From: a virus
Taxonomy: Duplodnaviria; Heunggongvirae; Uroviricota; Caudoviricetes
Length of the DNA: 15,371 nt
IMG/VR virus record: IMGVR_UViG_2579778778_000003
Strand: one strand, 5' to 3'
This document shows, piece after piece, positions 7,010 to 9,888 of the stretch. Under the pieces are notes generated by a model that ran no database searches, was not told where the DNA came from, and saw nothing but the letters and a program-made list of their open reading frames with translations. The translations under genes and the position numbers were made by a program. The first letter of the stretch is position 1, and each line of letters starts with the position of its first letter.

Positions 7010-7230
7010 TATCATTTTGCGGGTCCTTTCCGGCGATCCGACAGGTTACGGGGCGGCGACCTCGCGGGTTTTCGCTATTTATGAAAATTTTCCGGTTTAA
7101 GGCGTTTCCGTTCTTCTTCGTCATAACTTAATGTTTTTATTTAAAATACCCTCTGAAAAGAAAGGAAACGACAGGTGCTGAAAACGGGCTTTTTGGCCAC
7201 TGTCGTTTCCTTTCTCTGTTTTTGTCCGTG
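7010..7230 (+). other. cos: lambda cos site: cosQ, cosN (12-nt cohesive end GGGCGGCGACCT at 7051-7062) and cosB with R3, R2 and R1 terminase-binding elements
   Basis: ...CGGCGATCCGACAGGTTACG|GGGCGGCGACCTCGCGGGTTTTCGCTATTTATGAAAA... matches the lambda right-end/left-end junction; R3 CGTTTCCGTTCTTCTTCG at 7103-7120, R2 inverted at 7153-7174, R1 CGTTTCCTTTCTCTG at 7204-7218, just upstream of Nu1. Confidence 0.9.
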
Positions 7231-7239
7231 GAATGAACA

Positions 7240-7785
7240 ATGGAAGTCAACAAAAAGCAGCTGGCTGAAATTTTCGGCGCGAGTATCCGTACCATTCAGA
7301 ACTGGCAGGAGCAGGGAATGCCCGTTCTGCGAGGCGGTGGGAAGGGTAATGAGGTGCTTTATGACTCTGCCGCCGTCATAAAATGGTATGCCGAAAGGGA
7401 TGCTGAAATTGAGAACGAAAAGCTGCGCCGGGAGGTTGAAGAACTGCGACAGGCCAGCGAGACAGATCTCCAGCCAGGGACTATTGAGTACGAACGCCAT
7501 CGACTTACGCGTGCGCAGGCCGACGCACAGGAGCTGAAAAATGCCAGAGACTCCGCTGAAGTGGTGGAAACCGCATTCTGTACTTTCGTGCTGTCGCGGA
7601 TCGCAGGTGAAATTGCCAGTATTCTCGACGGGATCCCCCTGTCGGTGCAGCGGCGTTTTCCGGAACTGGAAAACCGACATGTTGATTTCCTGAAACGGGA
7701 TATCATCAAAGCCATGAACAAAGCAGCCGCGCTGGATGAACTGATACCGGGGTTGCTGAGTGAATATATCGAACAGTCAGGTTAA
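7240..7785 (+). CDS. nu1: terminase small subunit Nu1
   Basis: 181 aa, near-identical to lambda Nu1 as remembered (MEVNKKQLA...EYIEQSG); wHTH N-terminus; overlaps the A start by 26 nt as in lambda. Confidence 0.95.
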   Translation: MEVNKKQLAEIFGASIRTIQNWQEQGMPVLRGGGKGNEVLYDSAAVIKWYAERDAEIENEKLRREVEELRQASETDLQPGTIEYERHRLTRAQADAQELKNARDSAEVVETAFCTFVLSRIAGEIASILDGIPLSVQRRFPELENRHVDFLKRDIIKAMNKAAALDELIPGLLSEYIEQSG

Positions 7786-9685
7786 CAGGCTGCGACATTT
7801 TGTCCGCGCCGGGCTTCGCTCACTGTTCAGGCCGGAGCCACAGACTGCCGTTGAATGGGCGGATGCTAATTATTATCTCCCGAAAGAATCCGCATACCAG
7901 GAAGGGCGCTGGGAAACACTGCCCTTTCAGCGGGCCATCATGAATGCGATGGGCAGCGACTATATCCGTGAGGTGAATGTAGTGAAGTCTGCCCGTGTCG
8001 GTTATTCCAAAATGCTGCTGGGTGTTTATGCCTACTTTATAGAGCATAAGCAACGCAACACACTTATCTGGTTGCCGACGGATGGTGATGCCGAGAACTT
8101 TATGAAAACCCACGTTGAGCCGACCATCCGCGATATTCCGTCGCTGCTGGCGCTGGCTCCGTGGTATGGCAAAAAGCACCGGGATAACACGCTCACCATG
8201 AAGCGTTTCACCAATGGTCGTGGCTTCTGGTGCCTGGGCGGTAAAGCGGCAAAAAACTACCGTGAAAAGTCGGTGGATGTGGCGGGTTATGATGAACTTG
8301 CTGCCTTTGATGATGATATTGAACAGGAAGGCTCTCCGACGTTCCTGGGTGACAAGCGTATTGAAGGCTCGGTCTGGCCAAAGTCCATCCGTGGCTCCAC
8401 GCCCAAAGTGAGAGGCACCTGTCAGATTGAGCGTGCAGCCAGTGAATCCCCGCATTTTATGCGTTTTCATGTTGCCTGCCCGCACTGCGGGGAGGAGCAG
8501 TACCTTAAATTCGGCGATAAAGAGACGCCGTTTGGCCTCAAATGGACGCCGGATGATCCCTCCAGCGTGTTTTATCTCTGCGAACATAATGCCTGCGTCA
8601 TCCGCCAGCAGGAGCTGGACTTCACTGATGCCCGTTATATCTGCGAAAAGACCGGGATCTGGACCCGTGATGGCATTCTCTGGTTTTCGTCATCCGGTGA
8701 AGAGATTGAGCCACCGGACAGCGTGACCTTTCACATCTGGACGGCGTACAGCCCGTTCACCACCTGGGTGCAGATTGTCAAAGACTGGATGAAGACGAAA
8801 GGGGATACGGGAAAACGTAAAACCTTCGTGAACACCACGCTCGGTGAGACATGGGAAGCGAAAATCGGTGAACGTCCGGATGCTGAAGTGATGGCAGAGC
8901 GGAAAGAGCATTATTCAGCGCCCGTTCCTGACCGTGTGGCTTACCTGACTGCCGGTATCGACTCCCAGCTGGACCGCTACGAAATGCGCGTATGGGGATG
9001 GGGGCCGGGTGAGGAAAGCTGGCTGATTGACCGGCAGATTATTATGGGCCGCCACGACGATGAACAGACGCTGCTGCGTGTGGATGAGGCCATCAATAAA
9101 ACCTATACCCGCCGGAATGGTGCAGAAATGTCGATATCCCGTATCTGCTGGGATATTGGCGGGATTGACCCGACCATTGTGTATGAACGCTCGAAAAAAC
9201 ATGGGCTGTTCCGGGTGATCCCCATTAAAGGGGCATCCGTCTACGGAAAGCCGGTGGCCAGCATGCCACGTAAGCGAAACAAAAACGGGGTTTACCTTAC
9301 CGAAATCGGCACGGATACCGCGAAAGAGCAGATTTATAACCGCTTCACACTGACGCCAGAAGGGGATGAACCGCTTCCCGGTGCCGTTCACTTCCCGAAT
9401 AACCCGGATATTTTTGATCTGACCGAAGCGCAGCAGCTGACTGCTGAAGAGCAGGTCGAAAAATGGGTGGATGGCAGGAAAAAAATACTGTGGGACAGCA
9501 AAAAGCGACGCAATGAGGCACTCGACTGCTTCGTTTATGCGCTGGCGGCGCTGCGCATCAGTATTTCCCGCTGGCAGCTGGATCTCAGCGCACTGCTGGC
9601 GAGCCTGCAGGAAGAGGATGGTGCAGCAACCAACAAGAAAACACTGGCAGATTACGCCCGTGCCTTATCCGGAGAGGATGAATGA
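7760..9685 (+). CDS. A: terminase large subunit A (ATPase and endonuclease), full length
   Basis: 641 aa, uninterrupted; start overlapping the Nu1 end; stop overlapping the W start (ATGA); matches lambda gpA as remembered. Confidence 0.95.
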
Positions 9686-9888
9686 CGCGACAGGAAGAAC
9701 TTGCCGCTGCCCGTGCGGCACTGCATGACCTGATGACAGGTAAACGGGTGGCAACGGTACAAAAAGACGGACGGCGAGTGGAGTTTACGGCCACTTCCTT
9801 GTCTGACCTGAAAAAATACATTGCGGAGCTGGAAGTGCAGACCGGCATGACACAGCGACGCAGGGGACCTGCAGGATTTTATGTATGA
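9682..9888 (+). CDS. W: head-tail joining protein W
   Basis: 68 aa, matches lambda gpW; overlaps the A stop and B start. Confidence 0.9.

Follow-up and report, generated by a model that had tools for sequence, protein, structure and literature searches.

The DNA of 15,371 nucleotides filed in IMG/VR as virus record IMGVR_UViG_2579778778_000003 (the window, in what follows, is this whole stretch) carries side by side a lambda-type cos site, the genes for the two terminase subunits (nohD, encoding Nu1, and A) and the gene W, followed by a truncated portal gene, B'. We conclude that these belong to the late-operon end of a lambdoid cryptic prophage of the DLP12 family, integrated at argU and at an early stage of decay, and that the module cos-nohD-A-W is intact because the deletion to its right is recent; the probability that we give to this reading is about 0.88. 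Judged by its sequence, the element has every feature that was looked for in a lambda-type cos, in a lambda terminase and in a DLP12-family cryptic prophage. It holds nothing new in kind, being a rare, young and less eroded allele of the classic cryptic prophage DLP12, which is already known.

The chromosome of Escherichia coli AMSCJX02 is 100% identical to the window and was taken as the source strain. In its RefSeq annotation the element has argU (tRNA-Arg) and intD on one side and cusS on the other; argU and intD lie directly to the left, an arrangement also found in K-12. From left to right the annotated genes are yfdP, a hypothetical gene, a DUF968 remnant, quuD, a porin gene (opposite strand), essD, rrrD, rzpD, bor, ybcV, ybcW, ylcI, nohD, the large terminase gene, a head-tail joining gene, a partial portal gene, a partial tail gene and tfa. 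The order quuD-porin (nmpC type)-essD-rrrD-rzpD-bor-ybcV-ybcW-ylcI-cos-nohD is that of the DLP12 late region. The element is also defective in the way of this family: of the morphogenesis genes just the fragments B' and stf' and the gene tfa are left, and in the RefSeq annotation of AMSCJX02 there are no capsid or tail genes, only a tail-fibre fragment and the tail-fibre assembly gene.

What the element looked like before can be read from two prophages at the same locus. The prophage of 2014C-4135 is apparently complete; its gpA has the same accession (WP_001027290.1) as that of the remnant, and from 7008 to 10194, thus from cos via Nu1, A and W into B', only 3 of 3187 bases differ, one in nohD codon 13, one in A codon 38 (synonymous) and one in W codon 40, none of them in cosB. 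The prophage of 2014C-4587, apparently complete as well, combines an intact integrase with repressor and replication genes and with the genes from portal through J, lom and stf, and the window is mostly 99.9% identical to it between positions 1431 and 7122. Both prophages keep the portal, protease, D, E, FI, FII, Z, U, V, G, T, H, M, L, K, I and J genes, lom, stf, tfa, the repressor and the replication genes. In the window the sets from portal to stf, the repressor and the replication genes are lost, with B', stf' fragments and tfa left over.

The borders of the losses follow from the alignments. Relative to 2014C-4135, 18,005 bp are missing between portal codon 103 and the interior of stf, with a 2-bp microhomology (AG) at the junction, and a second loss of 1.4 kb lies between stf' and the start of tfa. 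Homology to complete portals stops at 10194, and the Pfam profile Phage_portal_2 is matched in positions 2-75 of 354 only; the stf' fragment matches an internal stretch of the 2014C-4135 stf at 99.3%. Relative to 2014C-4587, about 6.6 kb are missing on the left: window 1-1438 corresponds to 16001-17438 of the 2014C-4587 locus (L004) and window 1431-10194 to 24069-32832 of the same locus, the two overlapping at the junction 1431-1438 in the microhomology GGATA. This deletion put quuD straight downstream of a hypothetical gene for 171 amino acids on the same strand. An earlier, sequence-only reading of the stretch had stated that the portal is truncated, that all head and tail genes are gone and that the element cannot package itself. 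Annotation and alignment bear this out, and the internal stop in intD and the deleted immunity and replication genes add to the incapacity.

We therefore propose the following history. A complete lambda-like prophage at argU would have lost, in one illegitimate deletion at the 2-bp microhomology, the roughly 18 kb between portal codon 103 and mid-stf; further losses would have taken about 6.6 kb with the immunity and replication genes and another 1.4 kb of stf, and cos, Nu1, A and W would have been spared by their position just left of the big deletion.

How recent this deletion is can be judged from its distribution. With a 241-bp probe across the junction 10194/10195 it was found in 12 of 5426 complete E. 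coli genomes, and the 12 carriers are 99.9-100% identical to the window across 15.4 kb. At about 0.1% divergence from the complete relative, fewer than one disrupting mutation would be expected in the 2.7 kb of coding sequence. Intact reading frames are thus probably what neutrality predicts, with no selection needed: too little time has passed since the deletion for mutations to strike.

Mutations have nevertheless begun to appear. Within the junction clade three genomes were aligned base by base over the module and three more were checked via their annotation; among the genomes so compared there are three point changes in Nu1, A and W. The broiler isolate 2014-01-7375 (NZ_LR882057.1) has TGG changed to TAG at window position 7385, which is the nonsense mutation W49* in nohD, and in addition a synonymous change in A; SW07164 has one synonymous change in A and F719 none in the module. 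Both changes in A within the clade are thus synonymous. Other genes of the element are decaying too. Isolate 2014-01-7375 also has a frameshifted methyltransferase gene, yfdP is frameshifted within the clade, the endolysin gene rrrD of the carrier EC02 contains an IS3 (L014 4286-5514) and, independently of it, the carrier F8 has an IS1 in the gene upstream of quuD (L015 1300-1997). Within the junction clade the module is not under detectable selection.

Outside the clade, module and terminase have been cut back further. Strain MSHS 472 has the same Nu1/A allele as the window (2 differences over 7123-9317), and in it codons 1-519 of A run in frame into the C-terminal portion of tfa, window position 9317 being connected to 10414 (L006 9327-11336). 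RefSeq splits this chimeric open reading frame into two features, "partial terminase" and "terminase gpA endonuclease subunit". The split had suggested a premature stop in A, which was rejected, since on translation A(1-519) reads on into tfa in frame without a stop. In K-12, A stops at about codon 103, and in a spread sample of the collection there are forms with Nu1 plus tail fibre and also forms with a truncated Nu1.

K-12 DLP12 itself (argU; nohD, aaaD, tfaD) is one of the closest known systems. It shares with the window the integration site, the late gene order, cos with an intact nohD and a spacer between R2 and R1 that is 1 bp shorter than in lambda, and it is 97.8% identical over window positions 2176-8067. 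Of A it has only the first codons, about 103 of them (aaaD), joined to tfaD; its porin gene is interrupted by IS5 and its early region is different. The window, in contrast, has all of A and W, 103 codons of B and an intact porin gene.

The sequence-only reading had called the module "retained", in the sense of kept, and had named purifying selection on Nu1 and A across the carriers as a check. Such keeping is not borne out: the module differs from that of a complete prophage in 3 of 3187 bases, its junction is rare, one carrier has already lost nohD to a nonsense mutation, and in other lineages A is cut at codon 519 or 103. A review of "grounded prophages" says nothing of terminase or cos. 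Some points weigh against our reading. The junction clade is so young, with three point changes only, that a formal comparison of non-synonymous and synonymous rates (dN/dS) has no power, and weak selection on the module is possible. Moreover, cos and nohD persist in most of the deletion variants sampled; this may hint at selection on a smaller unit, and could equally reflect where deletions start. Finally, that the remnant's cos is cleaved and that nohD and A are transcribed is suggested by sequence identity only.

The cos site is of the lambda type in all its parts (Table 1). CosQ lies about 30 bp upstream of cosN, and the 55 nucleotides around cosN are those of lambda apart from one spacer base; the 55-nucleotide cosQ-cosN pattern matches the window once and matched none of 200 shuffled sequences. 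The core of the R elements, CGTTTCCNTTCT, is present in exactly 3 copies in the 15.4-kb window, where 0.01 are expected and where none of 200 shuffles gave 3 or more, and the copies are direct, inverted and direct, as R3, R2 and R1 are in lambda. Window 7051-7184, which includes I1, is identical to lambda bp 1-134. Five changes set the region in and near cos apart from lambda. One directly precedes cosQ, another falls between cosQ and cosN, and the remaining three are in the spacer between R2 and R1; the latter include a deletion of 1 bp common to K-12 DLP12 and the 2014C-4587 prophage. The description of the region as lambda-identical in every motif thus applies to the motif cores (cosQ, cosN, R3, R2 and R1) and not to the spacers. 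Because the cores are identical to those of lambda, a terminase of lambda specificity could plausibly cut the remnant's cos, as the sequence-only reading had supposed and as the data on K-12 DLP12 suggest (PMC3945230).

Both terminase subunits are full length. Nu1 is 98% identical to lambda Nu1, with 3 amino acid differences, and covers the Pfam profile Phage_Nu1 over its full length (4.9e-101). GpA differs from the lambda protein in one amino acid, T466I, starts with GTG as in lambda and covers the full Pfam profiles GpA_ATPase and GpA_nuclease. The two genes overlap by 26 nucleotides (7760-7785), again as in lambda. Thus the cos site and both terminase genes are indeed intact, as read from the letters alone, and at the very positions given for them. 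W had been counted as part of the packaging-initiation module, to which it does not belong: gpW is a head-completion protein. It has one difference from lambda gpW, V40L, and all relatives compared have V at position 40. Altogether Nu1, gpA and gpW are each 98-99.8% identical to the lambda proteins. Compared with lambda (NC_001416 bp 48473-48502 and 1-2839), the genes have the same order and lengths, with a DNA identity of 97.9% across 2879 bp. Unlike in lambda, the module is fixed in the chromosome, in a remnant without B (from codon 104 onward) through stf and without immunity and replication genes. Within A there are two open reading frames on the minus strand, 7820-8587 (255 amino acids) and 8915-9391 (158 amino acids), which are unannotated in all genomes examined.

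Table 1. Features of the DLP12-family remnant, in window positions (aa, amino acids)
Feature	Position	Strand	Description and basis
Deletion junction	1431-1438	+	repressor, replication and nin-region genes gone; alignment to 2014C-4587
quuD	1545-1928	+	RefSeq, AMSCJX02
porin	2118-3215	-	RefSeq, AMSCJX02
essD	3813-4019	+	RefSeq, AMSCJX02
rrrD	4019-4516	+	RefSeq, AMSCJX02
rzpD	4513-4974	+	RefSeq, AMSCJX02
bor	5006-5299	-	RefSeq, AMSCJX02
ybcV	5590-6000	-	RefSeq, AMSCJX02
ybcW	6286-6492	+	RefSeq, AMSCJX02
ylcI	6657-6851	-	RefSeq, AMSCJX02
cosQ	7021-7027	+	heptamer GGGTCCT; identical to lambda 48473-48479 (alignment)
cosN	7051-7062	+	12-nucleotide cohesive end GGGCGGCGACCT, nick sites on either side; identical to lambda bp 1-12
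cosB	7103-7215		R3 7103-7114 (+), I1 region, R2 7159-7170 (-), R1 7204-7215 (+)
nohD	7240-7785	+	Nu1, small terminase subunit, 181 aa, intact; WP_000453623.1 (RefSeq)
A	7760-9685	+	large terminase subunit, 641 aa, intact; WP_001027290.1
W	9682-9888	+	head-completion (head-tail joining) protein, 68 aa, intact; Pfam gpW
B'	9885-10194	+	portal truncated after codon 103; open frame continues in foreign sequence to 10244
stf'	10195-10338	+	internal side tail-fibre fragment; right side of the 18.0-kb deletion
tfa	10339-10872	+	tail-fibre assembly, 177 aa; Pfam Caudo_TAP and RefSeq annotation

The DNA beside cos is a mosaic. Of the 52 differences between the window and the 2014C-4587 prophage, 46 lie in 7123-9058 and only 6 in the other 6.8 kb or so. 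They lie in alternating blocks, each private to one lineage, in a tract beginning 61 bp rightward of cosN; the window-private block 8490-8880 is found with at least 99% identity in about 75 genomes, complete prophages among them. This points to gene-conversion tracts from other lambdoid phages and to repeated exchange beside cos. In nohD and A the differences from 2014C-4587 are 35 synonymous and 6 non-synonymous ones, and about 40 nucleotide differences between the remnant's A and that of lambda amount to one amino acid difference. These comparisons, with 29 synonymous to 4 non-synonymous changes against 2014C-4587, resemble strong purifying selection. To take them as evidence for such selection on the remnant was considered and rejected: since the differences sit in imported blocks that circulate in other prophages, the synonymous bias was shaped in functional phages and not in the remnant. 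For K-12 DLP12 it has been reported that the junctions of recombination with lambda cluster at cos and that its nu1 gene is functional in lambda (PMC3945230). The start of the tract near cosN fits this published clustering.

What can become of the remnant's cos depends on what is left around it. Terminases of the cos type require a second cos for the terminal cut, and protruding DNA left uncut blocks the attachment of tails (PMC6687093); natural cos satellites gain their second cos by excision and by replication into concatemers (PMC6092414). The gene intD, which lies outside the window (L001 13469-14632), has an internal stop in the AMSCJX02 annotation, and RefSeq shows no replication gene from intD to the element's right end, the region present in the relatives being deleted at 1431-1438. 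The cohesive-end sequence GGGCGGCGACCT is found once in the 115 kb of AMSCJX02 around the site, with no second cosN within 58 kb upstream or 57 kb downstream; a pair of cos sites in the same orientation and roughly 38-51 kb apart, as in a cosmid-like substrate, is therefore absent from these 115 kb. The AMSCJX02 genome contains no second A gene of the lambda type. Genes for a helper-responsive master repressor or for the redirection of packaging are not annotated in the element, for which no dedicated profile search was run. With a dead integrase, no replication genes and a lone cos, mobilisation in the manner of cosmids or cos-type satellites, which the sequence-only reading had suggested, is not supported. 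For interference with a helper phage, or for the donation of terminase to it, nothing in the sequence argues either.

What remains plausible is cleavage of cos by a compatible terminase, followed by recombination that is stimulated by the end, as documented for K-12 DLP12 (PMC3945230), and the rescue of nu1 and A as markers by incoming phages, of which the nu1 part is documented in the same work. In the remnant, cos would be bound and nicked by a terminase of lambda specificity from a superinfecting or co-resident phage or, in principle, by the remnant's own Nu1 and A, if a QuuD-dependent late transcript were made. The outcome would be a double-strand end promoting homologous exchange with the phage and not a packaged, transferable element, because no terminal cut comes from a single cos in the chromosome, and because both excision and replication are beyond the remnant.

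Three other readings were weighed against this one. A lambda-like helper could start packaging in place at the lone cos, which is fully lambda-compatible and has its own intact terminase, load the chromosome to the right of it and finish with a non-canonical final cut, which would be lateral transduction of a cos type. Lambda packages from cosN toward Nu1, that is in AMSCJX02 toward tfa, vgrG, cusSRCFBA and the ent/fep cluster, and initiation at a chromosomal cos does occur: the lambda "doc" particles known from work in the 1970s contain DNA with a single cohesive end derived from unexcised prophages. If this reading were true, the vgrG island, the cus copper/silver efflux operon and the enterobactin cluster would enter capsids, and a decaying prophage would seed a natural counterpart, in a cos phage, of lateral transduction. 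We consider it very improbable, however, since there is no second cos within a headful, without a terminal cos there is no cut and the protruding DNA blocks tail attachment (PMC6687093), and with the replication genes gone the region is not amplified in place.

Slightly less probable still is that the remnant is a proto-satellite or "hitcher", its cos and terminase having been kept for packaging and transfer by a lambda-like helper, in the way of a cosmid or a cos-type phage-inducible chromosomal island (PICI). The lambda-type cos with its intact motif cores would suit such a life; a cloned cos makes plasmids transferable by lambda, the island EcCICFT073 of E. coli is packaged by way of cos (PMC6092414), and defective prophages have been proposed as proto-hitchers (PMC11389934). 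The remnant carries, however, a stop in its integrase gene and has no replication or immunity genes left, the terminal cos needed (PMC6687093) is missing within 58 kb upstream and 57 kb downstream, and nohD is already knocked out in one carrier. In addition, the junction is rare and all its 12 carriers have it at one chromosomal locus, which argues for vertical descent and not for spread. EcCICFT073, SaPIbov5 and cosmids resemble the remnant in carrying a cos recognised by the helper's terminase. They differ from it in that they excise and/or replicate, which gives them tandem cos sites, and in that they are without terminase genes of the helper's kind; the remnant has one cos and no excision or replication function. 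Measured by what was tested, it is neither a cos-type satellite nor a cosmid-like substrate.

Just as improbable is the third reading, by which the module is kept by selection for harming or diverting lambda-like phages, either as a decoy for terminase or by making packaging abort at a chromosomal cos. PICIs do manipulate the small terminase of their helpers (Rpp and Ppi systems), and the persistence of cos and nohD in most DLP12 variants sampled speaks for such a role in a general, not a direct way; yet Nu1 and A, being so close to the lambda proteins, with a gpA identical to that of a complete prophage, would complement a helper and not poison it, one chromosomal cos would be a poor decoy where phage copies replicate by the hundreds, most lineages have a truncated A and one carrier has a nonsense mutation in nohD.

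Some observations concern the parts of the window away from the module. The porin gene between quuD and essD is of the nmpC/lc type, codes for 365 amino acids and is intact; the copy in K-12 is the one split by IS5. At 1962-1979, 34 bp past the quuD stop, there is a GC-rich hairpin, GGGGCGTTGCAACGCCCC, followed by a T-run on the minus strand, which could be the terminator of the porin gene or part of the late-promoter/terminator region. A scan of 1400-7300 for promoter and terminator consensus sequences gave 12 promoter-like sites, with 14.4 expected. The early-region genes yfdP and yfdQ (window 1-1438), and yfdR and yfdT just outside, are named as genes of the K-12 prophage CPS-53. K-12 DLP12 has other genes at the position of yfdP and yfdQ, so the prophage family at argU is mosaic in its left arm. 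On the right side of the remnant (12141-15371), where K-12 has the segment appY-ompT-envY-ybcH-nfrAB, the window lacks this segment and has instead an alpha/beta hydrolase gene that is truncated, a hypothetical gene with a frameshift, a DcrB-related gene and a vgrG of a type VI secretion system, beside cusS.

As a discovery the remnant has little weight, all its parts being textbook lambda. Its value is modest and lies in being a dated snapshot of prophage decay. At one locus there is now a series that comprises the complete prophage, its 18-kb deletion derivative, forms in which A extends to codon 519 or to codon 103, and forms with Nu1 only. Together with the tract near cos that has been scrambled by recombination, this series could provide material for estimating the rate at which prophages erode and for following the exchange of DNA between remnants and phages.

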